A stretch of DNA of 64,000 bases from an uncultured delta proteobacterium (GTDB lineage Bacteria; Desulfobacterota; Desulfobacteria; Desulfobacterales; SG8-13), in NCBI GenBank assembly GCA_963787235.1, contig CAWBCG010000009.1, positions 8,426 through 72,425 of the forward strand. Reading direction: 5' to 3'. The notes under the pieces were generated by a model. The model did not search any database and was not told the DNA's origin. It worked only from the letters and a program-made list of their open reading frames with translations. Shown in pieces: positions 24,466 to 43,438 of this stretch (the first letter of the stretch is position 1; the number at the start of each line of letters is the position of its first letter). The translations under genes and the position numbers were made by a program.

Positions 24466-25254
24466 ATGCGAAAATCAACAGCGCACTCGGTGAAAATCAG
24501 GCACAAGTTTCTGGTCATGAGCGGCAAAGGCGGCGTCGGAAAAACCAGTACCGCCGTCAATCTTTCCATCGCTTTGGCGAACAAGGGCTTCAAGGTCGGG
24601 ATCATGGATGTCGACCTTCACGGACCCGATGTCCCGCGTATGCTCGGCCTGAATGCCATGCTGGAGGTGGGGCCGAACGGCAAATTGACACCAGCCAGCT
24701 ATTCAAACAATCTAAAGGCCGTGTCGGTCGAATCCCTCATGCCGACCAAAGACGAAGCCGTCATCTGGCGCGGTCCCATCAAGTATTCGGCCATTCAGCA
24801 GTTTATCGGAGATGTCGAGTGGGGAGAGCTCGATTTTCTGGTGATCGATTCTCCACCCGGAACCGGCGACGAGCCGTTGACCATCGCTCAGATCGTAAAG
24901 GATGCCAAGGCCATTATCGTGACAACACCACAGGAAGTGGCGCTGGCGGACGTGCGCAAGTCGATCAGTTTTTGTAAGAGGGTAAAGATGGACGTTTTCG
25001 GTCTGATCGAAAACATGAGCGGGTTGAGTTGTCCGCATTGCGGTGAAATCATCGACCTGTTTGGTTCCGGCGGCGGCGAAAAAACGGCCCGGCAGTTCGA
25101 TTTGAATTTCCTGGGAAGAATTCCCATCGACCCGAACGTTGTCCAATGTGGAGATTCCGGACAATGTTACCGCGATGCCAACGCCGATTCGATTGTCACC
25201 CGGGCCTTTGATGACATTGCCGGCAAGATGGCCGAACTATCCCGGAAGAATTGA
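24466..25254 (+). CDS. Mrp/NBP35/ApbC family Fe-S cluster carrier ATPase
   Basis: Deviant Walker A SGKGGVGKTS, DSPPGTGDE, CPHCG motif. The N-terminus is uncertain (see finding). Confidence 0.85.
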   Translation: MRKSTAHSVKIRHKFLVMSGKGGVGKTSTAVNLSIALANKGFKVGIMDVDLHGPDVPRMLGLNAMLEVGPNGKLTPASYSNNLKAVSVESLMPTKDEAVIWRGPIKYSAIQQFIGDVEWGELDFLVIDSPPGTGDEPLTIAQIVKDAKAIIVTTPQEVALADVRKSISFCKRVKMDVFGLIENMSGLSCPHCGEIIDLFGSGGGEKTARQFDLNFLGRIPIDPNVVQCGDSGQCYRDANADSIVTRAFDDIAGKMAELSRKN

Positions 25255-25846: not shown

Positions 25847-26503
25847 TCAAGCGCTCGACAACCGCCGGGCCTGATCGGCAAGCAGCGATTTGAAGCGGTC
25901 GAGGGTGACCGGATAGGGCGTCATCGGAATCCCCATCCAATCGGTGTATTCGAGAAATTCCTCCGGCTTTTCCGCCATGTAGCGGTCCATGAAGCCGATG
26001 CCGTCCAGCACGATAGCCCCTCCGGTGTGGCGCGGGAAGTTTTCATTGGCCAGTCCTTTGTCCCAACCCTTAAAAACCTTGTGGCGAAATTGTACCCAAC
26101 CCGGCGTCATCCACCAGACTTTTTCTCCGCCGGCAACCTCCCGCGCGATTTCTTCCCGCTCGGCCTCACTTGCAATCATGTCCATACAATGCGTCGCGTC
26201 GATCCGGGCCACATTCGGCCCCTGTTCCGCGATGATTTTTTGCATCGTCCGGGTGGGCTCATCTGCGTTGACGTAGCAGAATTTACCCCCGTAGACCACC
26301 AGCACCTTGTCTGCTTTTTCCTTGGCCGCTGCGATTCGGCGGATCAACTGGCGTTCCAATTCGTGAATGTCCTCATGCAACCCCGGTGTCGTGAAGTAGA
26401 GGTGATCCGTATCTAATACACCGGCCTGCTTCAAGTAATTCAGCTCAAGGCTCAGGGTACCGCAGGATACGATGGCTATTTTTGAGAATGATACACTTTC
26501 CAT
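25847..26503 (-). CDS. DUF1638 domain protein (tentative)
   Basis: 218 aa. IAIVSCGTLSLEL...LHEDIHELERQL...VVYGGKFC pattern as I recall for DUF1638. GGAGGGG SD. Confidence 0.55.
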   Translation of the reverse strand: MESVSFSKIAIVSCGTLSLELNYLKQAGVLDTDHLYFTTPGLHEDIHELERQLIRRIAAAKEKADKVLVVYGGKFCYVNADEPTRTMQKIIAEQGPNVARIDATHCMDMIASEAEREEIAREVAGGEKVWWMTPGWVQFRHKVFKGWDKGLANENFPRHTGGAIVLDGIGFMDRYMAEKPEEFLEYTDWMGIPMTPYPVTLDRFKSLLADQARRLSSA

Positions 26504-26586
26504 TTGTATTCCCCTCCGTTAGGGCTGAATTTTAGAATGCGAGTGATGTAACGGGTTGACTTCAACCGATACGGTTTCAGACCGCA

Positions 26587-28497: not shown

Positions 28498-28511
28498 TGA
28501 GACCTCCTTTT

Positions 28512-28835
28512 TTACTTATTGAGGACTTCTGCAATCGCCTTGGATAGCACCTCAGCAGGCTGCAGACCGACAAACCGCTGCAATTCCTTTCCATTCTTAA
28601 AGATAATCAACGTCGGAATGCTGGTAATTCCGAGTTGGATAGCAATCTGCCGATGGTCGTCGATGTTTACTTCAATTATCCTGGCCTCGCCCTTGAATCG
28701 CCTGGCTAAAGTTTCGATAATCGGTTTCTGGTCGCGACAGGGGCTACACCATGGGGATTCAAAATCCACCAATGTCACGCCTGAGTTGACCCACTCTTCC
28801 AATTTTTTAAAACTCTGCTGTTGATAATCTTTCAC
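28512..28835 (-). CDS. Thioredoxin (WCSPC active-site variant)
   Basis: 107 aa. VDFESPWCSPCR active site and IPTLIIFKNG cis-Pro loop. Only 14 nt upstream of the reductase gene. Confidence 0.85.
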   Translation of the reverse strand: MKDYQQQSFKKLEEWVNSGVTLVDFESPWCSPCRDQKPIIETLARRFKGEARIIEVNIDDHRQIAIQLGITSIPTLIIFKNGKELQRFVGLQPAEVLSKAIAEVLNK

Positions 28836-29471: not shown

Positions 29472-29486
29472 CCAAAATTTGTGCCA
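29472..29486 (-). promoter_or_regulatory. Sigma-54-type promoter candidate (weak -12)
   Basis: Minus strand TGGCAC-AAATT-TTGG, about 105 nt upstream of ATG 29365. The -12 C is replaced by G. Confidence 0.3.
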
Positions 29487-29680: not shown

Positions 29681-31090
29681 ATGACGAAAAAAACTCATGA
29701 AATATGGAACTTCCGGTTCGTCAATCAAATTATCGATTCCATGGCCGACGGCGTGTTTACAATGGATGCCGGTGGCCGCATTTCTTCCTGGAACCCATCC
29801 ATGGAACGCATCAGTGGTTATTCGGCTGAAGAAGTTCTGGGCAGGACTTGCGAAATTTTGCAATGCAGCCGTTGCTTCGGTAAAAAATGCCCCGCGGGTA
29901 TCAAAAAATGTGGCATTATCAAACTTGGAATCTCGGAAGCCAAGGAATGTTTCCTGAAACACAAAGAAGGCCACAACGTATCCATCATCAAGAATGCCAG
30001 TGTTGTGCGTGATGAAAATGAGAATATTATCGGGGTTGTGGAAACGGTCACGGATATGACCGAGTTGAGCAAGGCACGACGAAAAATTGAGGAAGCGGCG
30101 CTGCGCCTGGGAGAAATGCACCGGTTGGACAACATCATCGGAAAAAGCCGTGCTATGCGAGAAGTGTTTACAGCGATAAAAGCAGCCGCCGCGAGCGATG
30201 TCACCGTACTGGTTCATGGGGACAGCGGGACGGGTAAAGAACTGGTGGCCGGAGCGATTCATTATAATAGCGAACGGGCTGCCGGCCCCCTGATTACGGT
30301 CAATTGCTCGGCGCTTTCCGAGTCGCTCCTGGAAAGTGAACTTTTCGGCCATGTAAAAGGCGCCTACACCGGGGCCTTGCATGACCGTGCCGGGCGCTTT
30401 GAGGAGGCGGAGGGAGGAACCGTATTTCTGGATGAAATTGGAGAGCTGAGCCCGTACATTCAAGTCAAATTGCTGCGCGTGCTGCAGGAAAGGGAGATCG
30501 AACGGGTCGGGGAATCGAAAAGACGTAAAATCAACATCCGCATCATTGCCGCTACCCACCGAAACCTTTACGACCTCGTCCGTGAAGGTGCTTTTCGCGA
30601 TGATCTTTATTATCGTTTGAAGGTTTTTCCGATCCAGCTGCCACTCCTTGACCAGCGAAGGGATGACATACCGCTTCTGGTCGGTCATTTTATTCAAAAA
30701 CACAACAAGAAAACTGCCAAACAGATCCTGGGGGTGTCCCAGGCAACGTTGCGTATTTTCATGGATTACAGCTGGCCGGGCAATGTCCGTGAACTGGAAA
30801 ATGCCATCGAACATGCCTTTGTCGTTTGCAACCGGGAGCAGATCGAGCCGTATGACCTGCCGGTTGAGCTGAGGCAGGCGCGCTACCGACAGATAGACAA
30901 GGAGGAAGAGAAGAACCGGAGCGTTTCACGACCATATCGGCGGGTGAAAATCGACAAGAAGGAATTGCTCGAAATATTGAATGAAAGCGATTGGAACAAG
31001 GCCGAGGCCGCCCGCCGGATCGGGATTAGCCGCACGGCGGTTTGGAAGTACATGAAAAAGTGGGCCATCCCACTGAGCAAAACGCACTGA
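29681..31090 (+). CDS. Sigma-54-dependent transcriptional activator (Cys-rich PAS, AAA+, Fis-type HTH), paralog 1
   Basis: GDSGTGKELVAGAIH, GAYTGA (GAFTGA variant), [18 protein letters not shown]-terminal AARRIGISRTAVWKYMKK. PAS region carries CEILQCSRCFGKKCPAGIKKC. Confidence 0.9.
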   Translation: MTKKTHEIWNFRFVNQIIDSMADGVFTMDAGGRISSWNPSMERISGYSAEEVLGRTCEILQCSRCFGKKCPAGIKKCGIIKLGISEAKECFLKHKEGHNVSIIKNASVVRDENENIIGVVETVTDMTELSKARRKIEEAALRLGEMHRLDNIIGKSRAMREVFTAIKAAAASDVTVLVHGDSGTGKELVAGAIHYNSERAAGPLITVNCSALSESLLESELFGHVKGAYTGALHDRAGRFEEAEGGTVFLDEIGELSPYIQVKLLRVLQEREIERVGESKRRKINIRIIAATHRNLYDLVREGAFRDDLYYRLKVFPIQLPLLDQRRDDIPLLVGHFIQKHNKKTAKQILGVSQATLRIFMDYSWPGNVRELENAIEHAFVVCNREQIEPYDLPVELRQARYRQIDKEEEKNRSVSRPYRRVKIDKKELLEILNESDWNKAEAARRIGISRTAVWKYMKKWAIPLSKTH

Positions 31091-31161: not shown

Positions 31162-31743
31162 CTATTTTTCTGAAGTTCGAAGAATCGATTTCAGGAATGT
31201 GTCTGTGTCTTGGATCTGACCCAGCCGGGCATAAAAAATCCTGGCGTTGTGATTGCCATCCAACTTTACGCCCATGTAGTAAGGGAACTTGACGCTGCCC
31301 AGTTTCCTGTGGATCGCGTCATCTGCGTCGGCGAAAACGGGAAACTTCAAGCCGTATTCTTCTTTGAATTGAGTCACCTGCAGGACTGAATTGCCGGCAC
31401 CAATGGCGATGAGCTTCAGCCTTCCCTTGAGTTCGGCGCTGCTTTCAATCTTTGCATACAATTGATTCATTTTGGGCGCATCCTTGTGGCACAGCGGACA
31501 GTACACACTGAACAGCTTGATGATCACGATGTCGGCCTTGATCTGATCCACGGAAAAAAGGCCAGATCCGGAAACGCCGAGATATCCCTGTAGACGCTCT
31601 TCTTGCGGAACAGGCAGCTCGATATCCGGAAGAACATCCCCAGCGGACGGCGGTTTATTTTTTTGATCGGAAATTTTGGCGGTTGCGCAGGCAGTCAGCA
31701 CCAGAGCGGTCAACAGGCTGACGAACACAATACTGTTTTTCAT
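31162..31743 (-). CDS. TlpA/redoxin-like thiol:disulfide oxidoreductase lipoprotein
   Basis: Lipobox LLTALVLTAC. CPLC active site in a thioredoxin-like fold. Confidence 0.8.
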   Translation of the reverse strand: MKNSIVFVSLLTALVLTACATAKISDQKNKPPSAGDVLPDIELPVPQEERLQGYLGVSGSGLFSVDQIKADIVIIKLFSVYCPLCHKDAPKMNQLYAKIESSAELKGRLKLIAIGAGNSVLQVTQFKEEYGLKFPVFADADDAIHRKLGSVKFPYYMGVKLDGNHNARIFYARLGQIQDTDTFLKSILRTSEK

Positions 31744-31762: not shown

Positions 31763-31987
31763 TTATGCCGGGGAATCGCCGGTGTGATTTATGGCCCGTT
31801 TTTCAGTTTCAGACCCGGTGTCCCAACCCTTCTGCCGCTTCTGCATGAACCAGATGACACAGGATGAACGATGTTTGCAGTATATGTTGGGATCTCGACA
31901 CGAGAGACACTCATCGCACAAGTACACGCCATGCTTCGTACACATGAAGCTGGTTTCTTTTTCAGGATGACAAGAGCATTTTCCCAT
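31763..31987 (-). CDS. Small Cys-rich zinc-finger protein (74 aa)
   Basis: CSCHPEKETSFMCTKHGVYLCDECLSCRDPNIYCKHRSSC, 10 Cys. 19-nt gap to the downstream TlpA-like gene. Confidence 0.55.
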   Translation of the reverse strand: MGKCSCHPEKETSFMCTKHGVYLCDECLSCRDPNIYCKHRSSCVIWFMQKRQKGWDTGSETEKRAINHTGDSPA

Positions 31988-32177: not shown

Positions 32178-32669
32178 CTACCAGCTAAATTCTTTTCTTA
32201 TATCTTCAAGCACCTTTTTTAGTTCCTGCATGTCATCGCGGTTCGGGTGGCCGGCTGCGTTTGGTGCATCCTTGAGCCAAACCGGCGGTTCCGGTTTTTG
32301 AGATACTCTTTCCAATACTTCTGGATTGACCTCGCCTTGACAACTGAAAGTGCCGAGTACCTTCGCTTCGGGTACCAGGCTTTTGGCATGCGACATGGCG
32401 TCTTTCGCATGGGCCGAGCCTGCCGCTGCGCCGTGAGTGGCAAAGAGGAAAAGCCGTTGAGCCTTGATCTTTGAAAGAAATTCTAAAGACAAGGGATCGG
32501 GTTTACCGGCCTTAAGCCAGAAACCGACGGCAACCGAATCGTATCCGCTCGGATCCGGTGCTTCGTCCACAGGATAGATTTTCTTCTCGGCATCGATGAA
32601 ATCAAACACCGCATCCGCCAGTTTGCGCGTATTGCCGGATTGACTCGAATAAACGATTAAGGTCTTCAT
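32178..32669 (-). CDS. Flavodoxin
   Basis: Tracked ORF trimmed to MKTLIVYSSQSGNTRKLA (FMN phosphate loop). GGAGGAATTTCC-ATG. Confidence 0.85.
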   Translation of the reverse strand: MKTLIVYSSQSGNTRKLADAVFDFIDAEKKIYPVDEAPDPSGYDSVAVGFWLKAGKPDPLSLEFLSKIKAQRLFLFATHGAAAGSAHAKDAMSHAKSLVPEAKVLGTFSCQGEVNPEVLERVSQKPEPPVWLKDAPNAAGHPNRDDMQELKKVLEDIRKEFSW

Positions 32670-32761
32670 GGAAATTCCTCCTAAAGTAAAAGGTGTTGTA
32701 TTGGCAGCAGGGCGCTTTCGGAAGTACCGACGATGCCCTTTTACACCATCTTCCAAGAAAT

Positions 32762-32790
32762 ATCGACCCCGCCGTCACGGCGGGGTCGAT
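32762..32790 (-). terminator. Terminator-like or attenuator hairpin in the flavodoxin leader
   Basis: 12-bp perfect GC-rich stem ATCGACCCCGCC/GGCGGGGTCGAT with a 5-nt loop, followed on the minus strand by ATTTCTT. Confidence 0.4.
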
Positions 32791-32856
32791 ACAATGGAGG
32801 GGTAAAGGAGGTGTTCGATGGAGGTAATGCCAAGTCACCCCTTGGGACAAATCAAA

Positions 32857-32871
32857 GCAATTTATGTGCCA
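32857..32871 (-). promoter_or_regulatory. Sigma-54 promoter (exact consensus core)
   Basis: Minus strand TGGCAC-ATAAA-TTGC, about 190 nt upstream of flavodoxin ATG 32669 and 50 nt downstream of the activator 2 stop. Confidence 0.65.
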
Positions 32872-32920: not shown

Positions 32921-34315
32921 CTACGGGCTCTCTTTAAAGAAACGGTTCTGCTTGGTTGCGATACCGTATTTTTTCATATGATTCCAGACTGTTACGCGGG
33001 TGACGCCCAAAATTTCAGCGGCTTGTGACTGATTGCCGCCGGTCTGTTCCAGTGCTTCGATCAGCCGGCGTTTTTTTGTGTCGTCTCTGGTCCCTCCGGC
33101 ACTGATGGCGGTTGGTAACTCTTTTGGCTTGCCGATAATATCCGGCGGAAGGTCCTGGGGTTGAATCATGAGCCCCTGGCAGGTGACGAAGGCATATTCG
33201 AACGTGCTCTTGAGTTCCCGGACGTTGCCCGGCCAGGCGTGGGCCATCAACAGGTGCATGGCGTCCTTGGCGATTCCGTTGATTTTTTTGTCGCTCTTGA
33301 GCTGAATGCGGCGGAAGAAATGTTCGGCCAGCAGCGGAATGTCGCTGACCCGCTCCCGTAAGGGCGGGACGTAGATGGGGATGACATTGATCCGGTAGAA
33401 AAGGTCTTCCCGGAAATTCCCCTGCTCGACCAGCTGCTTCAGATCGCAGTTGGTGGCCGAGATGATTCTGACATCGATTGAAATCGGCCGCTGATCACCG
33501 ACCCGTTCGATCACTTTTTCTTCGAGCACCCGCAGCAGTTTGACCTGGGTCGAAAACGGCAGGTCGCCGATTTCATCCAAGAAAATGTCGCCGCCGTTGG
33601 CCGCTTCGAACCGTCCCGTGCGATCTTTGTGGGCGCCGGTAAAAGCCCCCTTGACATGACCGAAAAGCTCACTCTCCAGCAACGATTCATTCAAGGCGGC
33701 ACAGTTGACCTTGACGTAGGGCCGCTGCTGCGTTGACTTGGATTCGTGGATGGCCCTGGCGATAAGCTCTTTGCCGGTGCCGCTCTCACCGAATATGATT
33801 ACAGGTGCATCCGATTGGGCGGCATTGGTGATCAGGTCATAGACGCGCTGCATCGGCGCCGAGGAGCCGAGAATCCCGTGGAAACCGTCTTCGGCGCGCA
33901 GTTGACGCCTGAAAGCCTCGATCTGCGTGTCCTTTTCAATCAGCTCCGTGACATCGGTCATGGTTTCCACGCCCCCTATCACCTCGCCTTGCGCGTCGTG
34001 CAGCAAAGCCGCGTTCTTGAGGATGTGAAGATAGCGGCCGTCCTTGCGCATCATGACACAGCTCTGTTTGCGGACGTTTCCGATCCTGAACAACTGACAC
34101 CAGTGACAATCCGCTTTTTCACGAGCGGCCTCGCAGGTGTTGCAGTGCAGAATCGTACATGACCGGCCGATGATTTCATCTCTGGAGTAGCCCGTTATCG
34201 ACTCGAAAGCGGTGTTGACCGAAACGATTGTGCCACCCGTGTCGACGATCATGATGCCGTCCTGGATCGTATCGACCACCGTTTTCCAATAGGCATTCAT
34301 CTCCTGGTCTATCAT
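32921..34315 (-). CDS. Sigma-54-dependent transcriptional activator (Cys-rich PAS, AAA+, Fis-type HTH), paralog 2
   Basis: [59 protein letters not shown] region carries [21 protein letters not shown]. Confidence 0.9.
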
Positions 34316-34326
34316 TTCCGATTTCC

Positions 34327-34342
34327 TGTTAAAAATTTAACA
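34327..34342. promoter_or_regulatory. Candidate enhancer (UAS) palindrome
   Basis: TGTTAAA-AA-TTTAACA perfect 7-2-7 palindrome. Further TTTAACA half-sites at about 34368-34384. About 190 bp upstream of the sigma-54 promoter. Confidence 0.35.
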
Positions 34343-34527
34343 TATATTAAATTTTATCTTTTAACAATTTAACACTCAAAATCAAGGATTTTTACAGCGG
34401 GCTTAAGAAATTGTTGGCGGTTCAGTCGGGAGTTTGAACGCTGTATACTTACAATCATCTGTAAACACTAATAAATCAAAATAAATTGATATCAATCCAG
34501 GGGTGGGGGATTTTTTTAGTGTGTGTG

Positions 34528-34543
34528 TGGCACCCAACTTGCT
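34528..34543 (+). promoter_or_regulatory. Sigma-54 promoter (exact consensus core) of the TusA/Qmo-like/DsrE operon
   Basis: TGGCAC-CCAAC-TTGCT, divergent from activator 2. Confidence 0.75.
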
Positions 34544-34557
34544 CATAGGGAAATACA

Positions 34558-35190
34558 ATGAGCGAAAAGGAAAAAAATTTTAATCGTTCGATAACCCATA
34601 ACCTCGATCTGCGCGGAACTCTCATGCCGTTTTCTCTCTTGAAGATCAGCCAGGCCCTGAGAGGTATCGAACCGGGGGAGTCACTCGAGGTCCTGTGGAG
34701 TGATCCGGATACGCCGGCGGATCTTTTCAAAGTGCTTCCCCCAAATGCTTACGAATTGGTCGGCATGGACCGCGTTGGAGAAAAAGATCCATATTTCAGG
34801 TTAATGCTGTTGAAGCGGTCGGTCGCTGGCTGTCCCAATGAAGACGATGGCATCTGTGAAGGTCGCTGCAACCAAAATTTATTCACAACAGCCGCTGAAG
34901 AGCGGTGGACTGCATCAAAACAAAAGGAGGAAACCATGACAGAATTGAATCTCAGCGAAATTAAAGCCAGCAGCACCGTTGACGCCCGGGGCAGCGCCTG
35001 CCCGGGACCGCTTCTCGAAGCCAAAAAAGGAATCGGTAAAGTTAAGGTCGGCGAAATACTGGAGATCTATTCCGCCGATTCCGGTACCCGCAAGGACATC
35101 CCGGCCTGGGCCAAAAAGGTTGGTCACGATTATCTGGGAATACTGGAAGTCGACGGGTACGACAAACACTTTGTGCGCAGAAACAAGTAG
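34558..35190 (+). CDS. Tandem TusA-like sulfur-carrier protein (Cys-less N-domain, Cys-rich linker, canonical C-domain)
   Basis: Domain 1 DLRGTLMPFSLLK (no Cys). Linker CPNEDDGICEGRC. Domain 2 DARGSACPGPLLEAKK (CPxP motif). Confidence 0.75.
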   Translation: MSEKEKNFNRSITHNLDLRGTLMPFSLLKISQALRGIEPGESLEVLWSDPDTPADLFKVLPPNAYELVGMDRVGEKDPYFRLMLLKRSVAGCPNEDDGICEGRCNQNLFTTAAEERWTASKQKEETMTELNLSEIKASSTVDARGSACPGPLLEAKKGIGKVKVGEILEIYSADSGTRKDIPAWAKKVGHDYLGILEVDGYDKHFVRRNK

Positions 35191-35201
35191 GACACACTGC
35201 C

Positions 35202-35636
35202 ATGACATTGCCGACACCGAGTGCCACAGACGGAAAGATCCTGATTCTTGCCACGGAAAACTGCGCCTACCCCGGTGCCAATTCAGTCGGGCAGGCGCAC
35301 TCGACCTATCCGGCCAACACCTACATCCTGCGGGTGCGCGCACCGGCCCTGTTTCCGGAGCAGTTCTACATGGATTGTTATCGCAAGGGCATCAGCGGCA
35401 TCATCATCATGTCCTGCGGCGAGGAGTGTCCCTATGAGGGAGCCTATCACGCCCTGGCCAAGCGCATCGACCGGGTTTACGCCCAAATGAAGGCCAGGGG
35501 CATCGATGTCAGGCGTCTGCGGTTGACGGCCATCTGTACTGTCTGCAACCGGGCGTTTCTCAAAGAGGTCAACGACATGAACGCGTTGGTGCAGGAACTG
35601 GGGCCACCTGTTTGGAAAGAAATGGCGGCAGCCTGA
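35202..35636 (+). CDS. MvhD/FlpD-like hydrogenase delta-subunit-type iron-sulfur protein
   Basis: ILILATENCAYPGANS...YPANTYILRVRAP...GISGIIIMSCGEECPYEGAY resembles the MvhD family Cys pattern. Confidence 0.7.
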   Translation: MTLPTPSATDGKILILATENCAYPGANSVGQAHSTYPANTYILRVRAPALFPEQFYMDCYRKGISGIIIMSCGEECPYEGAYHALAKRIDRVYAQMKARGIDVRRLRLTAICTVCNRAFLKEVNDMNALVQELGPPVWKEMAAA

Positions 35637-35748
35637 GCGCCATCGGTTGCTTTTAACAATCGATCCGGCAAGGCATCGTCTTTAAACATAACACAGCGGT
35701 GCCTCGCTCGTTCGACAATACAAACTCCGGAATGAGCGGGGGAAAAGA

Positions 35749-37050
35749 ATGAAGACCCAGCACGATCTCGAATTCGACGCACTGGTGGTTGGCGGCGGCA
35801 TCGCCGGCCTCCAGGCCGCACTCGATCTGGCCGAGCAGAATAATCGCGTGGCTGTGATCGAAAAGGACGCTTCGATCGGCGGCAAGATGATCCGGCTCTC
35901 CAAAGTCTTTCCGACTCTCGACTGTGCCAGCTGCATCACGACGCCCAAAATGGCGGCGGCCGCCCATCACGACAACATCGCGATATTTACCTATTGCGAC
36001 CTTAAGCGTCTGGAACGCAGCGGTGAAGAAATCGTGGCCGCCGTTACCCAGCGTCCTCGATATGTCGACCCGGTCAAGTGCATCGGCTGCCGGCAGTGCG
36101 AATACGGCTGTCCGGTTTACGTACCGGATGAAGAGCAGGGCGGTTTCAATTTCCGCAAGGCCATCTCGATACCATTTTCGAATGCCATTCCCCAAATCGC
36201 TGTGATGGACACCGCTAACTGCACCCTGTGTGGCAAGTGCGCCAGGGTGTGCCCGACCAAGGCGATTGATTACTGCCAGAATCCGGAAAACTTCACTCTG
36301 CGGGCGAAAACGGCCATCCTGGCCACAGGTTTCAAACTGACCCAGTTGAACCAAAAAAAGGAATACGGACAGGGGCAGGTGCCGAATGTCATTACCTCCT
36401 TGCAGATGGAACGGCTGTTGGCGCCGCACGGTCCATATCAACGGGTGCTCCGCCCTTCGGACGGCAAGGAACCCGAGTCGATTGCCTATGTTCAGTGTGC
36501 CGGTTCCAGGGACAAGAGTCTGGGAGTTGGCTATTGCTCCCGCGTATGCTGCATGTACGCCATCAAACAGGCCATGCTGCTATCCGGCTCCTTGCCGCTG
36601 GCCGACATCACCATTTACTACATGGACATCCGGGCTTTCGGCAAAGGCTATGAGCAGTTCTATCAGAACGCCAAGGCCATGGGGATCGAGTTCGTGAAGG
36701 CCAAAGTGGCGCGCATCCAGCAGGGCGAAGATCAGAAAGTGACCTTGCAGTATGAAGCCCAGGAGGAAGATGGCCGGGTGGCGAATCGCGAACACGACCT
36801 GGTGGTCCTTTCGCTGGGGATGGTGCCGGACTGGAACCCGGCCGGCATATGCCCGGTTTCAACCGCCGAGGATGCCTTTATCAAAACCACGATGCCGAAA
36901 ATCGCTCCCGCGCTGACCGACATGCAAGGCGTCTTTACCGCGGGTGTCGCCGCCGGACCGAAAGACATCGTCGACACCATCGTCGAGGCCGGCGCTGCAG
37001 CTACGGAAGCGGCCAAATATCTGCGAATGTTTGCAGAGCGAGCCGCCTGA
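35749..37050 (+). CDS. HdrA-like FAD/Fe-S oxidoreductase, QmoA-sized (433 aa)
   Basis: VVGGGIAGLQAALDLAE, CASCITTPKM, two ferredoxin CxxCxxCxxxCP motifs, VQCAGSRD...YCSRVCC (HdrA-type cluster site). Confidence 0.85.
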   Translation: MKTQHDLEFDALVVGGGIAGLQAALDLAEQNNRVAVIEKDASIGGKMIRLSKVFPTLDCASCITTPKMAAAAHHDNIAIFTYCDLKRLERSGEEIVAAVTQRPRYVDPVKCIGCRQCEYGCPVYVPDEEQGGFNFRKAISIPFSNAIPQIAVMDTANCTLCGKCARVCPTKAIDYCQNPENFTLRAKTAILATGFKLTQLNQKKEYGQGQVPNVITSLQMERLLAPHGPYQRVLRPSDGKEPESIAYVQCAGSRDKSLGVGYCSRVCCMYAIKQAMLLSGSLPLADITIYYMDIRAFGKGYEQFYQNAKAMGIEFVKAKVARIQQGEDQKVTLQYEAQEEDGRVANREHDLVVLSLGMVPDWNPAGICPVSTAEDAFIKTTMPKIAPALTDMQGVFTAGVAAGPKDIVDTIVEAGAAATEAAKYLRMFAERAA

Positions 37051-37155
37051 TGTCCGCATTGTGGCGGTGGACAGCGCGTTATGTCGACGATGGAGCCTGT
37101 GCAAGTGAAAACCTTTGAGCGGCTGCGTCAGGTAACTGTGAGCAGGAGAAGGGTT

Positions 37156-39036
37156 ATGAGTTCAACAGTGCAAAAGGAAGAGAACGAGAAAAAGGTCGGT
37201 GTCTACATCTGTCACTGCGGCGGCAATATATCCGACCACATCGATGTTCAACAGCTGGCTGAAAACATCAAGAACATTCCGGGTGTGGCGGTCACTCACA
37301 CCAATATGTTCATGTGTTCGGACCCCGGTCAGGAACTGATCCAGAAGGACATCGAAGAGGGCCGCATCAATCGCGTGGTGGTGGCGTCCTGTGCTCCAAG
37401 TCTCCATGAATTGACCTTCCGGAGCGCCATCAAACGGGCGGCTCTGAACCCGTATCTCTACGAACATGCCAATATCCGCGAGCAGGTCAGCTGGGTGCAC
37501 CACGGTGAAAGCGCCACCAGCAAGGCGACCCGCCTGGTGTCCGCTGCGGTTGCTAAAGCCAGGAACCTCGAAGCCTTGGAACCGATCAGAGTCGAAGCCC
37601 GGCAGCACGTGACGGTGATCGGCGCCGGTGTGGCCGGTATGCGGGCGGCCTTGGACCTCTCCGGGTGCGGCATTGCGGTGGCCCTGGTCGAAAAATCGCC
37701 GTTTTTGGGTGGGCAGGCGGCGCAGCTGACGGAATTGGTCCCGACCGGCGAAAAAGCGGCCGACGTGATCACCCACTTGGCTACCGCCGTGGTAAAGGAC
37801 CCGCAGATCAGCGTTTTTACCAGTGCCGAAATTGTTCAGGTGGAAGGCTATGTGGGAAACTTCAAAACGACAATACGGCAACAGCCGCCGGCATCCAAGT
37901 ATGACGTTACCAGGACCATGTCCGGAAATTATCAGCCGTTTGCGGGGTTTTTGCCGGACATCCTGCCGGGCGACAGCCGTGACATTCAACTCGAGAGCGG
38001 TGTCATCGTGCTGGCCACCGGTTTCAAGACCTACAGTCCGCACAGCGGTGAATACGGATACGGTGAGAACCCCGAGGTCATCGCCTTGCCGCAGTTGATT
38101 CGAGAAATGACCCTTGCCCAAAACAACGGACGGGTGCTGCAAGTCAACGGACGCGCCATTCGGCGAGTGGCCTTCATTCACTGTGTCGGTAGTCGCCAGA
38201 TTCCCGGCATCCACGAACCGGATGAAAACGGCGAGGTGAACGAATACTGCTCGCGCACCTGCTGTAGCGCCACCCTGCAGGCCGCACTGCAGATCCGGCA
38301 ATCTTTCCCCGGAACGCATGTCTTGGAGTACTACCGCGACATTCGTACTTATGGACGGGGACAGGAAGAAGTCTACGACCAGGCTTCCGACGGCAATGTG
38401 CTCTTCTTCCGGTTCGAAGCCGACGCGCCGCCGCTTGTGGAAAAAGCGGACGGTTCCGGCTACCCGCTAAAAATAACGGTCAAGGACGTTTTAACCTTCG
38501 GTGAAAACGTCACGGCGGAAGTCGATCTGGTGGTTCTTTCAGTCGGAATGGTGCCGACGCCTATCTCCGATCTGGTGGAAATGATGAAACTACCGGTCGG
38601 TGCCGATCATTTTCTTCAAGAAGTGCATCCGAAATTACGGCCGGTTGAGGTCGCCAACACCGGCATCCTTTTGGCCGGCACCTGCCAGGCCCCCATGGAC
38701 ATCGGTGAGGCCTGCGCGGCCGCCCAGGCAGCTGCGGCCAAGGCGACCGCCCTGCTTGTCAAGGGATATGTGGAACTCGATCCGTTTGTGGCGAATGTCG
38801 ACCTCGATCGCTGCAGCGGCACCGGCCGCTGCACGGAAGTCTGTCCGGTGGAAGGTGCCGTTCGAATGGTCGACCGACAGGTCGACGGTCAACCGGTCAA
38901 GCGGGCCGAGGTGAATCCGGCGCTTTGCACGGGCTGCGGCATCTGCGTGGGCGAATGCGCGGAGAATGCCATCGACGTCAATGGATGGGCGCTGAAGCAG
39001 TACGAAGAGATGGTGGATGCCATACTGGCGGCATGA
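37156..39036 (+). CDS. HdrA-like FAD/Fe-S oxidoreductase, QmoB-like but lacking a C-terminal MvhD-type domain (626 aa)
   Basis: Start trimmed to MSSTVQKE (AGGAGAAGGGTT-ATG). VGVYICHCGGNIS, IGAGVAGMRAALDL, HCVGSRQ...YCSRTCC. C-terminal 2x[4Fe-4S] CSGTGRCTEVCP / CTGCGICVGEC. Confidence 0.85.
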   Translation: MSSTVQKEENEKKVGVYICHCGGNISDHIDVQQLAENIKNIPGVAVTHTNMFMCSDPGQELIQKDIEEGRINRVVVASCAPSLHELTFRSAIKRAALNPYLYEHANIREQVSWVHHGESATSKATRLVSAAVAKARNLEALEPIRVEARQHVTVIGAGVAGMRAALDLSGCGIAVALVEKSPFLGGQAAQLTELVPTGEKAADVITHLATAVVKDPQISVFTSAEIVQVEGYVGNFKTTIRQQPPASKYDVTRTMSGNYQPFAGFLPDILPGDSRDIQLESGVIVLATGFKTYSPHSGEYGYGENPEVIALPQLIREMTLAQNNGRVLQVNGRAIRRVAFIHCVGSRQIPGIHEPDENGEVNEYCSRTCCSATLQAALQIRQSFPGTHVLEYYRDIRTYGRGQEEVYDQASDGNVLFFRFEADAPPLVEKADGSGYPLKITVKDVLTFGENVTAEVDLVVLSVGMVPTPISDLVEMMKLPVGADHFLQEVHPKLRPVEVANTGILLAGTCQAPMDIGEACAAAQAAAAKATALLVKGYVELDPFVANVDLDRCSGTGRCTEVCPVEGAVRMVDRQVDGQPVKRAEVNPALCTGCGICVGECAENAIDVNGWALKQYEEMVDAILAA

Positions 39037-39118
39037 TGCGGCGGCCGCGGGCATGGCAAGATGCCGCCAGTAGCTGAAGCACATGCAAGGTAAACGATGA
39101 CGCACGGGAGTGAGCGTG

Positions 39119-39403
39119 ATGAACGAAGAAAATAAGACCGACAAGGCTGCCCTCAAAAAGCTGCGTGAAGATAGGGCCTGGCAGATCAGCCGGGCCAAAG
39201 AGACCGTAAAAACGCAACAGCAGATCATCAAGCGCATAACGGAGCAGATCAAAAACGATGGGAAAACGATCCCGGAGATTTCACAGGCAACCGGACTGCC
39301 GGCATCACAGGTTCTCATGTTCGTCGCGACGCTTCGCAAATATGGAGCGGTTGTCGAAGGAACGAAGGACGGGGACTATTTCCGCTACCAAATTTCCAAC
39401 TGA
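39119..39403 (+). CDS. Small (94 aa) putative winged-helix protein, unknown function
   Basis: ATG 39119 preceded by GGGAG. TIPEISQATGLPASQVLMFVATLRKYGAVVE looks like an HTH/wHTH. Confidence 0.5.
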   Translation: MNEENKTDKAALKKLREDRAWQISRAKETVKTQQQIIKRITEQIKNDGKTIPEISQATGLPASQVLMFVATLRKYGAVVEGTKDGDYFRYQISN

Positions 39404-39430
39404 ACCCAATAAATTCATGGGAGATGCATT

Positions 39431-40600
39431 ATGACGGCCTTGGTCGATCCCGATCTGTTGATCAACCTCAAAAAATTCGGTGTCGAAGACGCAGCGACAT
39501 GTTTCAACTGCGGCAACTGCACGGCGGTGTGTGCACTGTCCTCCGCCGCAACACCTTTTCCGCGCAAGGTGATCCGCTACCTGCAGCTCGGTCTCAATGA
39601 CAAACTGCTGCAGAGTCCCGAACCCTGGCTCTGCTATTACTGCGGTGATTGCAGTGATACCTGCCCGCGCCAGGCCAATCCGGGAGAGGTCATGATGGGA
39701 CTGCGGCGCTATCTGACGTCACGATATGATTGGACGGGTATATCGCGCCTGTTTTACACTTCCAAGATTTTCGAGGTGATGGCGATTATGATGGTGGCCG
39801 CCTTGGTGGGACTTGGGTTTTACTTCTTTCACGGGCCAATGCTGACAGACCGGGTGGCCCTGAACGTGTTCGCGCCCAACACGACCATCGAGATCCTCGA
39901 CTTGATCATGCTGGCGGTGCTCTCCTTCTTCTTATTGTCCAATGCCTATCGGATGTTCAGGGCCGTCATGGGCGAGCCCGACCAATACGGTGCGACAACC
40001 AACGCCGGAGGCAGCGGGGCGTTGGGGGTGTCCCTGCGGGGCATTCCCTTGAAGACTTATCTGAAAGAGGCCAAAGAATTCATCCTTCAGTTTTTGACCC
40101 AGAAAAAATTCAACTCCTGTGGGACACAGCCGCAGCGGCAACAATGGATCGTTCACCTTCTGATCATGACCGGTTATTCCACGGTTTTTCTCCTGGTTGT
40201 TGTCGGAATCCGCTGGTTTCAGCGTGATGAAATCTACGCCCTGTGGCATCCGGTGCGACTGCTGGGCTACTACGCCACCTTTGCGATTCTTTACGGTGTC
40301 TCCTACGCGATCATCGGGCGGATCCGAAAGAGCAAGACGGTGTACAAGCACACTCATTCATCCGACTGGGCATTTCTGGTTCTTTTGTGGTTGACCACTT
40401 TCAGCGGCATTTTGATTCATTTTACCCGTCTGTTGGAAATGCCTATGAGCACCTACGCCATCTATGTCATCCATCTGATGATCGCCGTGCCGATGCTCGT
40501 GATCGAGGTTCCGTTTGCCAAGTGGACCCATCAACTCTATCGGCCGCTGGTGCTGTATCTGATGAAAGTCAAAGAGCGGGCCTTGTCGGCATCGGCTTAA
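39431..40600 (+). CDS. QmoC-like fusion: HdrC-type 2x[4Fe-4S] domain plus NarI/HdrE-like multi-helix membrane (cytochrome b-type) domain
   Basis: CFNCGNCTAVC and CYYCGDCSDTCP, followed by 5-6 hydrophobic helices with conserved His (HLLIMTGYS, LIHFTRL, VIHLMIAVP). Confidence 0.75.
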   Translation: MTALVDPDLLINLKKFGVEDAATCFNCGNCTAVCALSSAATPFPRKVIRYLQLGLNDKLLQSPEPWLCYYCGDCSDTCPRQANPGEVMMGLRRYLTSRYDWTGISRLFYTSKIFEVMAIMMVAALVGLGFYFFHGPMLTDRVALNVFAPNTTIEILDLIMLAVLSFFLLSNAYRMFRAVMGEPDQYGATTNAGGSGALGVSLRGIPLKTYLKEAKEFILQFLTQKKFNSCGTQPQRQQWIVHLLIMTGYSTVFLLVVVGIRWFQRDEIYALWHPVRLLGYYATFAILYGVSYAIIGRIRKSKTVYKHTHSSDWAFLVLLWLTTFSGILIHFTRLLEMPMSTYAIYVIHLMIAVPMLVIEVPFAKWTHQLYRPLVLYLMKVKERALSASA

Positions 40601-40638
40601 ACTTAAGATATAAATTCACTGAGGAAAGGAAGTTAAAA

Positions 40639-41016
40639 ATGGCTGAAAACGAAGAAAAGATTTTATACATTTGCACCCATGCCGACGATAATCCGGAAAA
40701 GGCGGCGATGCCGTTTGTCATGGCCAATGCGGCCCTGGCCATGGACATCAAGGCGACGGTCGTTTTGCAGGGCAACGGCGTTTACCTGGCCCGCAGAGGT
40801 TACACGGACAACATGGGGCGACCAGGCGGTTTTCCTCCCGTTAAGAAACTGGTGGCTGAATTCATGGAACTCGGCGGAAAGCTGCTCGTGTGCGTGCCCT
40901 GCATCAAGGAGCGCAATATCGATGAATCCAGCGACCTGGTCGAAGGAGCGCAAACAACCGCCGCCGGCGCACTGAACGTGGAAGCGATAGAATCAAATGC
41001 GGTGCTCGTTTATTAA
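40639..41016 (+). CDS. DsrE/DsrF-like sulfur-relay family protein (125 aa)
   Basis: Tracked ORF trimmed to MAENEEKILYICTHADDNPEKAAMPFVMANAALAMD (GAGGAAAGGAAG SD). LVCVPC Cys pair. Confidence 0.75.
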   Translation: MAENEEKILYICTHADDNPEKAAMPFVMANAALAMDIKATVVLQGNGVYLARRGYTDNMGRPGGFPPVKKLVAEFMELGGKLLVCVPCIKERNIDESSDLVEGAQTTAAGALNVEAIESNAVLVY

Positions 41017-41050
41017 TCCTGTATTATGTAAACGACCAGAGGTTGACGTC

Positions 41051-41755
41051 ATGAAAGAAACCAGGGTCAATGTCATGCCGAAAAGGGTAACCGACCTAAT
41101 CGAAGCCAGGCGAAATGGCGCAGAGGTTTCCTGTGAAACGGCTTTTGAAATCGTGCCGGTAGACTTCGAGCATCGCCATAATCCGTTCCAGGCGTTTGTG
41201 TTTCTCTGTCGCTACTCCGGTATCGTGGACAAACGACCATACACTTTCAGAAAGTGCTATGCCCGCGGATGTCCGCACAACTTGTGCCCCCATGTTTCAC
41301 AAGCGGTACTGATCGCCAATCGCTACCTGCAGAGAGACTACCGTCGGTTACGCGAAGCCGAAATCGAAGTGGCAGAAAAACTCTTTACGCTTAATGAGAT
41401 GGTCGTTCAATTCGACACGGCCAAGGAAGAACGCGATGCAGTCCTGACCATAGACGATTACATCGGAATCGCCAAAGAGGGCAATGCCGTTGAGGTGGTT
41501 ATAGACCTCGAATATGTCCCGGCGGTGGAGCATTTCGTCCACCATGAAAATTCGCAGACATTTCTAACTGTCAATTTTGTCATTATCTGCCTGGGGGGCA
41601 AGTGTCATTTCGAGCGTTGCTTGGCCTGTTACCCGACCGAAGAGGAGAGACAGGAGAAACCGCTCATGATGCAAGTGGCCAATGAACGCCTGAAACTGAT
41701 GTACCAGAATTTTGACGGGGCCGGAATCATATACGAAGAACGCTTCTTTGTATGA
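41051..41755 (+). CDS. Cys/His-rich protein of unknown function (234 aa)
   Basis: Start trimmed to MKETRVNV. CYARGCPHNLCPH and CLGGKCHFERCLAC clusters. No family recognised. Confidence 0.6.
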   Translation: MKETRVNVMPKRVTDLIEARRNGAEVSCETAFEIVPVDFEHRHNPFQAFVFLCRYSGIVDKRPYTFRKCYARGCPHNLCPHVSQAVLIANRYLQRDYRRLREAEIEVAEKLFTLNEMVVQFDTAKEERDAVLTIDDYIGIAKEGNAVEVVIDLEYVPAVEHFVHHENSQTFLTVNFVIICLGGKCHFERCLACYPTEEERQEKPLMMQVANERLKLMYQNFDGAGIIYEERFFV

Positions 41756-41816
41756 CGCCCAATTCGGCCGGTCCGTTTGTAAATCATCACTTTAATGAAT
41801 TAGAAAGGTATTTTGC

Positions 41817-42398
41817 ATGTTGGATATAACCCATACGTCGATGGATGAAAGAGTGGAAACGCTCGAACAACGAATAGTGCATCTGGAGGGTGAATTGCAG
41901 GCCGTAAAAGAAAACATGCCCGACGATCAGCTCTCGATGGTCGTCTTCAGCGGAGATCTCGATCGGGTTCTGGCTGCCTTTATCATCGCCACCGGTGCAG
42001 CGGCGATGTACGAGAAAGTCGTCATGTTTTTTACCTTCTGGGGAACCTCGGTATTGCGGGATCTGAAAAAGACCGTTAACAAAAAAGATCTGACCGCCAG
42101 GATGTTTGGTCAGATGCTGCCGAAAGGCGCCGGCCAATTGAGGCTTTCGCAGATGCACATGGCCGGGCTCGGCACCCGGATGCTCAAGGGCCTGATGAAA
42201 AAGAAGGGTGTGATGTCACTTGAAGATCTCATGAAAACGGCGGCTGAATTCGGTGTCGAGATCATTATCTGCGAAATGTCGATGGATCTGATGGGTTTCA
42301 GTATGGAGGAGTTCATCGACTATCCCAATGTCTCGTTGGCCGGGGCGGCTAATTTCCTGGGGGAAGCCGCTAACAGCAAAGTGACGCTTTTCATATGA
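41817..42398 (+). CDS. DsrE/DsrF/DrsH-like (DsrE2-type) family protein with N-terminal coiled coil
   Basis: LSMVVFSGDLDRVLAAFIIATGAAAMYEKVVMFFTFWG and EIIICEMSMDLMG match my recollection of the DrsE_2-type family. Confidence 0.7.
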   Translation: MLDITHTSMDERVETLEQRIVHLEGELQAVKENMPDDQLSMVVFSGDLDRVLAAFIIATGAAAMYEKVVMFFTFWGTSVLRDLKKTVNKKDLTARMFGQMLPKGAGQLRLSQMHMAGLGTRMLKGLMKKKGVMSLEDLMKTAAEFGVEIIICEMSMDLMGFSMEEFIDYPNVSLAGAANFLGEAANSKVTLFI

Positions 42399-42485
42399 TT
42401 TTATCAGATTGCATAACCATTGGTGAATATGGTAGAGGCGTTTAGATTTTTATCTTTCAACCCGACTGCATAAGGAGACGACCAA

Positions 42486-42845
42486 ATGACCAACAACGTC
42501 GTGATTGCGTTATCCTGCGGCACGAATGACACCAACCGCGCCACCCGAGCCATTCACCTGGCCACCATCGCCCACAAGGAAGGCAAAAACACAACGCTTT
42601 TTCTACTGGATGAAGGCGTTTATCTGGCCAAACAGGGGATCATCACGCACGTGCGGGCCGCCACCGGCGATGTAGCCGACGACTTGCTGACGTATCTCCA
42701 GGCCCACGAAGTGCCGATTTTGGTTTGCACTCCCTGCGCTAAGGCGCGGCAGATCAATGAAGAGGATTTGATCGAAGGCTCCCGCATGGCCACCGCGGCA
42801 GAATTCATCAACATGTCCTGCGATGCCGCCGTCATCAGCCTGTAG
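42486..42845 (+). CDS. DsrE/DsrF-like sulfur-relay family protein (119 aa)
   Basis: VVIALSCGTNDTNRATRAIHLATIA...LFLLDEGVYLA...ILVCTPC, paralogous in pattern to 40639..41016. Confidence 0.75.
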   Translation: MTNNVVIALSCGTNDTNRATRAIHLATIAHKEGKNTTLFLLDEGVYLAKQGIITHVRAATGDVADDLLTYLQAHEVPILVCTPCAKARQINEEDLIEGSRMATAAEFINMSCDAAVISL

Positions 42846-42856
42846 CAAAAGTCCGG

Positions 42857-43438
42857 CTGACAGTTTCCGATGACGGCCGGTTTGGGAGCATTGGGGTGTC
42901 TCGACGCCACTTCCTCGAGAAAACGGATCTCGGCGGCATGGACATCGGCTATGGACTGCCCTGGTTCCGGATCGGTATAAAACATGACAAAGTAGACCGG
43001 ATGGCCGTAGTCCAGGGCCACACCGATCTGCGAGTTAAGTTTTGACCCACCGATTCCCGGTCCGTGACCGGCACGTGGGTCGATGATTACAATGGGTCGC
43101 ATCGGCAGGGCCGAATCCGCAACTGTGGTTTTTCGTGTTAACCGGCGTTCGATTTGGTTTACAGGCTTATCTTCCTTGGTTCGCCGGTCCAGGATACGAA
43201 TCAGAGAATAGTTCACCGGCTGATCGAAGGTGCGGCCATCGATTACCAGTTCATAGTCAAAAACCAGAACGGGCGGCTGTCCGGCTCTCAGATGCGCCAA
43301 ATAGTTGTTGCCGCGCTTTCTTAACACGTCCCAGAAAAGAATCGTCCGTTGCGTGCGATCTACCATATATTCCATGGTCGAAGACGACCAGGGCAGTGCT
43401 TGTGCAAATCCGGATATTGGATTGAACTCGTTCATCAT
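42857..43438 (-). pseudogene. 5' fragment (about 194 codons) of a DUF3141/PHA-synthase-like alpha/beta-hydrolase gene, truncated inside the G-x-C-x-G-G box
   Basis: IIDPRAGHGPGIGGSK...GHPVYFVMF...KPAVIGNCQ, after which the tracked ORF runs antisense through the DsrE gene (PDFCYRLMTAAS...). Full-length relatives are several hundred residues longer, as far as I recall. Confidence 0.55.

Follow-up and report, generated by a model that had tools for sequence, protein, structure and literature searches.

The window analysed here was a stretch of 64,000 nucleotides from an uncultured delta proteobacterium of the Desulfobacterales, in which an earlier note, made from the sequence alone, had described a sigma-54-controlled operon of ten genes combining a Qmo-like membrane redox complex with TusA and DsrE sulfur carriers. 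The open reading frame (ORF) listing contained all ten ORFs (g1 to g10), co-directional on the + strand at 34558–42845, and a search against Pfam and NCBIfam profiles agreed with every domain assignment made previously. The operon is real, widely conserved and apparently undescribed. Its genes, its promoter and the divergent activator gene beside it (act1) are as follows:

34528–34543, + strand: sigma-54 -24/-12 promoter, TGGCACccaacTTGCt, an exact match.
34558–35190, + strand: g1, a fusion of a Cys-less TusA-like domain and a canonical TusA domain (Pfam TusA, two stretches).
35202–35636, + strand: g2, MvhD/FlpD-type iron-sulfur protein (Pfam FlpD, E = 2e-18).
35749–37050, + strand: g3, HdrA-like flavoprotein, 433 aa (NCBIfam HdrA2, 450 bits).
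37156–39036, + strand: g4, HdrA-like flavoprotein, 626 aa (HdrA2 model, 505 bits; HdrA of PDB 5ODC, 435 bits).
39119–39403, + strand: g5, winged-helix protein, 94 aa, no Cys (weak helix-turn-helix match; AlphaFold2 (AF2) model with a predicted local distance difference test score (pLDDT) of 92).
39431–40600, + strand: g6, QmoC-type anchor (NCBIfam qmoC, 194.5 bits, full length; HdrC di-cluster; weak Nitrate_red_gam match).
40639–41016, + strand: g7, DsrE3-like sulfur carrier with a C-x-P-C motif (Pfam DsrE).
41051–41755, + strand: g8, 234 aa, no match in Pfam or NCBIfam; invariant C53, C69, C74, C79, H81, C190 and C193.
41817–42398, + strand: g9, soluble DsrE2-type protein (Pfam DrsE_2, E = 1e-49).
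42486–42845, + strand: g10, second DsrE-like protein, YchN-like with a C-x-P-C motif (Pfam DsrE; similar to PDB 1JX7, YchN).
32921–34315, - strand: act1, divergent sigma-54 activator with a Cys-rich PAS domain, an AAA+ domain and a Fis-type helix-turn-helix (Pfam PAS_9, Sigma54_activat, AAA_lid_14, HTH_8).

Four start codons were moved on the evidence of ribosome-binding sites and independent gene calls: those of g4 (to 37156, giving 626 aa, on the basis of the ribosome-binding site AGGAGAAGGG and a 626-aa gene call in the related locus L003), g5 (39119, 94 aa), g7 (40639, 125 aa) and g8 (41051, 234 aa). After this revision the intergenic gaps from g1 to g10 were, in order, 11, 112, 105, 82, 27, 38, 34, 61 and 87 bp, which is the range of 11–112 bp previously given. 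The terminator scan stood at background level, with no convincing + strand terminator-like site between the operon genes; a sigma-70 scan of the window was also at background level, and Rfam and tRNA scans of the window returned no match.

The redox genes occupy the middle of the operon. The Cys motifs of g2 were conserved in its orthologues, which were about 80% identical. In g3, a FAD/thioredoxin-reductase-like domain with an inserted ferredoxin domain kept the DCxxC motif, while the terminal HdrA domains were missing. Alignment of g4 to 5ODC showed an HdrA N-terminal domain, a FAD domain and a C-terminal 2x[4Fe-4S] domain, without the inserted ferredoxin domain and without the DCxxC motif. 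Since every domain of a single methanogen-type HdrA is present in one or other of the two proteins, along with an additional FAD domain, the pair looks like a complementary HdrA heterodimer. The earlier note had called them QmoA-like and QmoB-like HdrA flavoproteins. They are indeed HdrA-like, but orthology to QmoA and QmoB did not hold: g3 was 32% identical to the canonical QmoA of locus L038 and g4 was 27% identical to its QmoB, whereas methanogen HdrA was matched at 350–369 bits by g3 (369 to PDB 9SFI) and at 435 bits by g4. Judged by these comparisons, both proteins are HdrA-type, much closer to methanogen HdrA than to the Qmo subunits. The likeness to the methanogen HdrABC-MvhAGD complex (PDB 5ODC, 8RVU) extends to g2 as the counterpart of MvhD and to the N-terminus of g6 as the counterpart of HdrC, and the N-terminal, FAD, inserted-ferredoxin and C-terminal ferredoxin domains of HdrA are all found in g3 and g4. 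However, the operon divides these domains between two complementary proteins, encodes neither HdrB nor a hydrogenase, and has its HdrC domain in a fusion with a cytochrome b.

That fusion is g6, in which an HdrC-like 2x[4Fe-4S] domain is followed by a cytochrome b domain with about six transmembrane helices. Eight Cys, H242, H309, H348, H367 and C230 were invariant both in the clade of g6 and in apr-linked QmoC, and the identity of g6 to the QmoC of L038, which is apr-linked, was 57%. The NCBIfam qmoC cut-off of 300 bits was considered as a criterion of membership and rejected, because a QmoC of this lineage that is genuine and apr-linked scores below it too (207 bits in L038, against 194.5 for g6), and the cut-off is non-discriminating here. 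In a neighbour-joining tree, the QmoC proteins of the window-type loci from Desulfobacterota (group A, below) formed one clade, sister to canonical QmoC. Thus, g6 is placed by sequence as a true QmoC-type subunit of a distinct sister clade. The small protein g5 was predicted to consist of a long N-terminal helix and a winged helix, and its Foldseek matches were winged helices of the ArsR, SmtB and MarR types. Only 31 homologues of g5 were found in 5.8 billion proteins; its gene nevertheless lay between the HdrA2 gene and the QmoC or HdrC gene in 38 of 39 related loci.

The remaining genes encode the sulfur carriers and g8. As the earlier note had stated, g1 is a tandem TusA protein, in which the first domain lacks the Cys (MP replaces CP) and the second has the canonical CPGP. 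Its equivalents are two separate genes in most relatives and are fused in L009, L011, L018 and L031; the C-terminal domain was most similar to Ta1170 (PDB 1PAV). The closest solved structure to g7 was DsrE3A (PDB 3MC3), with the active-site Cys aligned; the first Cys of the C-x-P-C motif was invariant and the second was conserved in the copies from Desulfobacterota. The DsrE2-type protein g9 was similar to PDB 3PNX (1e-26), with its Cys conserved, and appeared to be accessory, being present in 6 of 39 loci. Carrier cysteines of TusA and DsrE proteins were conserved across the relatives.

Additional cysteines were observed in the Cys-less TusA-like proteins. The linker of g1 (about 34860–34930) holds three Cys (GCPNEDDGICEGRC), and many of the separate Cys-less proteins end in short Cys-containing tails (GGCRCG, GGCDCS, GRCCR, GGSCCS or GGPSCLKSI). 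Sources of such tails include L005, L014 and L027–L030, and the tails were absent in L007, L008, L017 and L085. By analogy with DsrC, these tails and the linker could form a flexible Cys arm.

A total of 1029 homologues of g8 were found, all unnamed, with 81 representative clusters among 1.84 billion representatives. The AF2 model (pLDDT 81) consisted of duplicated helix/three-strand/helix repeats, and Foldseek found no fold match for it in the PDB at E <= 0.001. Its CxxxxCxxxxCxH arrangement may be SWIM-like. The distant homologues P0305, P0290 and P0256 were rejected as informative loci, as their contexts were unrelated or their contigs too short. In L085, a g8 paralogue (8001–8765, 32% identical to g8) directly follows the g8 orthologue; therefore, the family can occur as a pair.

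The promoter and activator were as the earlier note had described them. The sequence TGGCACccaacTTGC at 34528–34542 was one of only two exact sigma-54 matches in the 64 kb, where 0.26 would be expected by chance, and both a -24 GG/-12 GC element at the start of the operon and an adjacent bacterial enhancer-binding protein were present. At least 19 related loci had the same -24/-12 element in the interval separating the activator gene from the start of the operon, and the activator gene adjoined the operon in 27 of 39. The PAS domain of act1 carries the motif C-x4-C-x2-C...W-C plus a later Cys, and these cysteines were conserved across orthologues. The window promoter ends just 15 nt ahead of the g1 ATG, compared with 40–100 nt in about 19 orthologous loci, and this spacing implies a leader of about 5 nt without room for a ribosome-binding site. 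An alternative g1 start with a normal leader was rejected, because there is no in-frame ATG, GTG or TTG upstream of the conserved LDLRG motif.

Relatives of the operon were collected in two ways. The QmoC-like protein had thousands of homologues, many of them about 80% identical, and a genome scan with it yielded 80 loci, all from metagenome-assembled genomes (MAGs), which were divided into groups A and B. Group A showed the window-type arrangement and came from bins assigned to Desulfobacterales, Desulfosarcinaceae, Desulfocapsaceae and Desulfobulbus, apart from three outliers binned as Phycisphaerae, Anaerolineae and unclassified. Group B consisted of canonical-type qmoABC clusters, in which MvhD is fused to QmoB and QmoC is 51–58% identical to g6. 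Group A together with the loci reached through g8 homologues made up a related set of 39 loci, all from MAGs or metagenome contigs, in which the components occurred as follows:

TusA with Cys: 34 of 39 loci.
MvhD: 34 of 39 loci.
HdrA1 (g3 type): 34 of 39 loci.
HdrA2 (g4 type): 38 of 39 loci.
Winged-helix protein: 38 of 39 loci.
QmoC: 36 of 39 loci.
HdrC plus HdrB in the place of QmoC: 2 of 39 loci.
DsrE: 35 of 39 loci.
g8: 26 of 39 loci.
Activator: 27 of 39 loci.

Most of the shortfalls reflect contig ends. Even where the order had changed, as in four loci of the Desulfocapsaceae/Desulfobulbus type in which DsrE lies ahead of the canonical TusA gene, DsrE was still in the operon. TusA, the DsrE3-like protein and usually g8 are inherited with the redox genes, and a Cys-PAS activator and a conserved sigma-54 promoter go with them. 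This co-conservation across 39 loci answers the objection, raised in advance by the earlier note, that the carriers might not be co-conserved with the Qmo-like genes. Beside the operon in three loci was a fusion of CoA-disulfide reductase and rhodanese, which in L023 stood between the activator gene and TusA. The homologue lists for the QmoC-like protein, g8 and g5, and the cluster members themselves, were confined to MAG and metagenome proteins and entries named 'hypothetical protein'. The earlier note had matched the gene order to no characterised system, and no paper describing the cluster was found in a literature search of incomplete coverage.

Among the nearest described systems is the canonical (type I) QmoABC complex of Desulfovibrio and Desulfobacteraceae, from which the operon had already been set apart on account of its separate MvhD gene and the absence of an apr gene. 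Both points were confirmed. No apr gene occurs in the 64-kb window, and AprA/AprB were found in 0 of 38 related loci, compared with 11 of 44 canonical-type loci in which they were adjacent; in L038, sat-aprBA precedes qmoABC. Residues 636–768 of the L038 QmoB match VhuD/MvhD, and the window has a separate gene, g2, for this module. The two systems share the architecture and conserved ligands of the QmoC anchor and the combination of two HdrA-derived flavoproteins with an MvhD-type module. However, the operon differs in its winged-helix gene between the B and C positions, in the TusA, DsrE and g8 genes, and in its sigma-54 control. Therefore, membership in canonical QmoABC fails on A/B orthology, fused MvhD and apr linkage, and only the C subunit passes.

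These comparisons bear on whether the operon might encode an alternative Qmo complex that still serves adenosine 5'-phosphosulfate (APS) reductase encoded elsewhere in the genome. Although the 57% identity of g6 to apr-linked QmoC and its full complement of shared cofactor ligands would fit such a role, neither aprBA nor sat occurred near the related loci, g3 and g4 resemble QmoA and QmoB so little, MvhD is unfused, the QmoC copies form a separate clade and the operon has its own sigma-54 regulation. The explanation was judged highly improbable. Moreover, group A and the canonical type are probably paralogues, since sat-aprBA-qmoABC is also present in bins belonging to Desulfobacteraceae, the same family.

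Three other systems were compared. The 'type II' QmoAB(C) of Vulcanisaeta and Ammonifex has A and B subunits closer to typical HdrA than to bacterial QmoAB, and its clusters occur with or without apr and dsr, with a function stated to be unknown (Neukirchen et al. 2023, PMC10504309). By description, the HdrA-like A and B subunits of the window are a point of likeness, whereas the position of g6 as sister to type I QmoC argues against membership, and that paper makes no mention of an association with TusA, DsrE, g8 or sigma-54. The sHdr system (Tanabe et al. 2024, PMC11094781) likewise ties an Hdr-type complex to TusA and to DsrE3-type and DsrE2 carriers, with cysteines conserved. However, the window lacks HdrB1, HdrB2, HdrC1 and HdrC2, with no CCG domain in the ten proteins, and no lipoyl/GcvH-type domain (LbpA) was found in these or in the 30 other window proteins scanned. 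A QmoC membrane anchor and full-length methanogen-type HdrA with MvhD are present instead, and the hosts are Desulfobacterota with reductive-type machinery. Membership in sHdr therefore fails, and the TusA/DsrE3 association is what the two have in common. Finally, the YTD cluster (DsrEFH type II) comprises a YedE/YeeE-like membrane protein, TusA, DsrE and two DsrF/H-like proteins. No YeeE/YedE domain is present here, and the predicted fold of g8, with its duplicated helix/three-strand/helix repeats, would not be DsrE-like when compared by description.

The related loci also differed among themselves in a modular fashion. Locus L090 has the exact g1–g10 order of the window, followed by four further co-directional genes (module 2), and L091 is a contig with the same genes. 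The genes of module 2 in L090 are, in order:

First gene: HdrA-like protein, 412 aa.
Second gene: Fer4 plus FlpD protein, 536 aa.
Third gene: HdrC-like protein, 235 aa.
Fourth gene: CCG-domain, HdrB-like protein, 168 aa.

Module 2 was found at the downstream end of the cluster in seven loci (L011, L012, L024, L036, L090, L091 and L092), usually after the DsrE2 gene or a g10-type DsrE gene; in L011 it directly follows g8, and in L012 it follows metVF. In L089, module 2 directly follows g8 and module 1 is absent. There was no module 2 anywhere in the 64-kb window. A second kind of variant concerned the anchor, as L085 and L092 have an HdrC-like protein (100 aa) and an HdrB-like CCG protein (309 aa) at the position of QmoC. 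Their flanking genes are orthologous to those of the window (HdrA1 75%, HdrA2 60% and g8 57% identical). By gene content, what the window contains is a short form, made up of module 1 and the carriers, of a system that is larger and modular.

The end of the operon in the window is marked by a truncated gene:

42846–43438, - strand: operon boundary, truncated DUF3141 remnant (Pfam DUF3141, profile positions 1–163 of 582 only).

The remnant abuts the g10 stop codon, its reading frame continues into g10, and it occupies the spot where relatives have the Hdr-like module 2; it marks a rearrangement at that position. Because the same g10/DUF3141 junction recurs in the independent metagenome contigs L001 and L002, the end of the operon is a natural short form and not an assembly artefact.

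A third variation involved methylene-tetrahydrofolate reductase. The genes metV and metF lay next to or inside the cluster in 8 of 39 loci, with orthologues 76–85% identical to one another, and directly followed g8, co-directionally, in L009, L012, L013, L022 and L085. The L012 genes run g8-MetV-MetF-HdrA-FlpD-HdrC-CCG, a set like that of Moorella. The MetFV-HdrABC-MvhD complex of Moorella thermoacetica, as cited in PMC10553843 and PMC5861303, resembles the present system in combining HdrA and MvhD with metV-metF, which applies to these eight loci, and module 2 with MetVF in L012 reproduces its gene set. It differs in that the window has neither metVF nor HdrBC, apart from the HdrC-like domain of g6, and in that a quinone anchor, sulfur carriers and two additional HdrA-like proteins belong to the system described here.

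Accordingly, a serious rival, if a somewhat unlikely one, is that the Hdr/Qmo-like complex is the electron-transfer partner of MetFV, as in Moorella. Complete-oxidising sulfate reducers would then pass electrons from methyl-tetrahydrofolate (methyl-THF) to menaquinone through QmoC, perhaps with bifurcation to flavodoxin or ferredoxin, and TusA, DsrE and g8 would be accessory, for example as redox mediators or in assembly. Besides the placement of metVF and the gene order of L012, a metF-HdrABC synteny noted in Seep-SRB1g (PMC10553843) is in its favour. Yet TusA and DsrE occur in nearly all related loci, whereas metVF is missing from about 80% of them and from the window. The presence of four to five sulfur-carrier genes, and of the CoA-disulfide reductase-rhodanese gene in three loci, would be left unexplained. 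By our own estimate, bifurcation from methyl-THF (about -200 mV) to menaquinone and ferredoxin would also be slightly uphill at standard potentials. Nonetheless, any explanation of the operon has to account for the association of the larger system with MetFV and with a CCG-type Hdr module.

Several features upstream of the operon suggested a wider regulon:

34327–34374, no strand: candidate binding sites for the activator, where the palindrome TGTTAA-N4-TTAACA occurs twice, 32 bp apart (repeat search).
32857–32871, - strand: second exact sigma-54 promoter, just downstream of act1 and ahead of the flavodoxin gene.
32178–32669, - strand: flavodoxin gene (Pfam Flavodoxin_3, E = 7e-35).

The palindromes sit about 155–200 bp upstream of the operon promoter, and from their sequence and position we infer only that the pair could be an upstream activating sequence. 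A - strand sigma-54 site comparable to the second promoter was present downstream of the activator in eight related loci, and flavodoxin adjoined the cluster in L005, L006 and L008 and was near the related locus L089. The flavodoxin gene probably belongs to the same regulon as the operon. Between the second promoter and the flavodoxin start lies a perfect 15-nt inverted repeat (TATCGACCCCGCCGT a ACGGCGGGGTCGATA; 32761–32791), which could be an attenuator or a protein-binding site and had no match in Rfam.

Further upstream, a paralogous Cys-PAS sigma-54 activator (act2, 29681–31090, + strand) is divergent to genes for thioredoxin, an old yellow enzyme (OYE)/pyridine-nucleotide-disulfide flavoprotein and DUF1638 (25847–28835, - strand), with a one-mismatch sigma-54 site at 29472–29486 (- strand). 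Genes of the thioredoxin, OYE, DUF1638 and act2 types recurred near the cluster in a few other loci, and those divergent to act2 may be a second operon of the same regulon. An AhpC/TSA-like redoxin lipoprotein (31162–31743, - strand) and a 74-aa Cys-rich protein without a family match (31763–31987, - strand), the latter adjoining the cluster in about six other loci, are encoded between the two activator genes. A gene for a ParA/NUBPL (Mrp/ApbC-type) Fe-S cluster carrier ATPase (24466–25254, + strand) lies a few kb upstream, and P-loop/Fer4 MinD-like genes were near the cluster in L010, L020 and L021. Elsewhere in the window, a single ORF of 2916 aa (52134–60884, - strand) occupies a stretch with a G+C of about 0.61, compared with about 0.53 elsewhere.

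These neighbours are the basis for a different explanation, considered unlikely, in which the operon is part of a redox, thiol or persulfide stress regulon instead of energy metabolism. A Cys- or Fe-S-based PAS sensor would induce flavodoxin, thioredoxin-type proteins and a quinol-fed complex, and the induced set would repair or detoxify persulfides, polysulfides and oxidised thiols. The flavodoxin, redoxin lipoprotein, thioredoxin, OYE-type flavoprotein, DUF1638 and paralogous activator genes in the window would all suit this role; several of them recur near the cluster elsewhere, and control by sigma-54 implies conditional expression. We also take the PAS cysteine motif of act1 to resemble Fe-S or redox-sensing PAS domains such as that of NreB. 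However, a five-subunit membrane complex rich in heme and flavin would be costly for repair, the association with metVF and with a second Hdr module speaks for a place in core energy metabolism, and the neighbouring genes are loosely conserved, in three to four loci each.

The reading preferred here, held tentatively as one that falls somewhat short of probable, is that the product of the operon is an HdrA-type flavoprotein complex coupled to menaquinone, which is under a sigma-54 switch and acts jointly with Cys-based sulfur carriers. Predicted cofactor sites form a complete path that leads from a cytochrome b with its quinone site, by way of the HdrC-like clusters, to a pair of HdrA-type flavins with MvhD as adaptor. 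Electrons would move between the quinone pool and the HdrA flavin across the hemes of QmoC and the HdrC-like clusters, in that order from the quinone side, with the involvement of a low-potential carrier, for which the co-regulated flavodoxin would be the obvious candidate. The third partner would be the cytoplasmic proteins carrying persulfide or disulfide, namely TusA, the C-x-P-C DsrE proteins and DsrE2, with the interface formed by g8, MvhD or both. Flavin-based bifurcation or confurcation could operate in either direction. The midpoint potential of sulfane sulfur/sulfide, at about -270 mV, lies halfway between menaquinone and ferredoxin or flavodoxin, and so would suit either process. In relatives, the CCG-type Hdr module could perform the actual S-S chemistry.

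A number of observations weigh against this reading. There was no CCG/HdrB domain or other recognised sulfur-reactive site in the ten genes or in the 64 kb, so that the reduction or oxidation of protein-bound persulfide is without an identified active site. The carriers persist where HdrCB replaces QmoC (L085 and L092), so that being the substrate of the QmoC branch does not fully account for them. The metVF genes adjacent to or inside the operon in eight loci suggest a folate-linked role. No fold or cofactor site was recognisable in g8, which together with MvhD is the only candidate for the interface, and the relatives are MAGs and metagenome contigs throughout. The quinone-linked HdrA complex with a TusA/DsrE persulfide relay, which was the central proposal of the earlier note, is thus partly supported: co-conservation and domain content uphold it, the lack of a sulfur-reactive catalytic subunit does not, and the sulfur-relay inference is reasonable yet under-determined.

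A further possibility, which we regard as quite improbable, would connect the carriers to both modules. TusA, the DsrE-type proteins and g8 would together act as a protein-borne (per)sulfide/disulfide shuttle, as a bacterial equivalent of the CoM-S-S-CoB cycle, charged by a soluble CCG-type Hdr module (fed by MetFV in some lineages) and discharged to menaquinone through the QmoC-anchored HdrA complex, or the reverse. If true, the shuttle would identify the long-sought co-substrate of methylene-THF reductases of the HdrABC-MvhD type, and energy would be conserved from the oxidation of methyl-THF or the turnover of sulfane sulfur, in complete-oxidising sulfate reducers and in sulfur disproportionators.

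The cluster is best filed as a variant of HdrA/Qmo-type complexes, rather than as a categorically new system. It is common in the genomes and metagenome contigs of uncultured Desulfobacterales, Desulfosarcinaceae and Desulfocapsaceae, and seems to be absent from every organism that has been cultured or studied. It bears on the role of TusA and DsrE carriers in organisms with reductive-type sulfur metabolism, and on the electron partner of Hdr-linked methylene-THF reductases. The Cys/His family of g8, the tiny winged-helix family of g5 and the Cys-PAS sigma-54 activator with its candidate binding site are targets for biochemistry, and the variants of the cluster (which have QmoC or HdrCB and may contain or lack module 2 and MetVF) provide a natural experiment for assigning functions to its parts.

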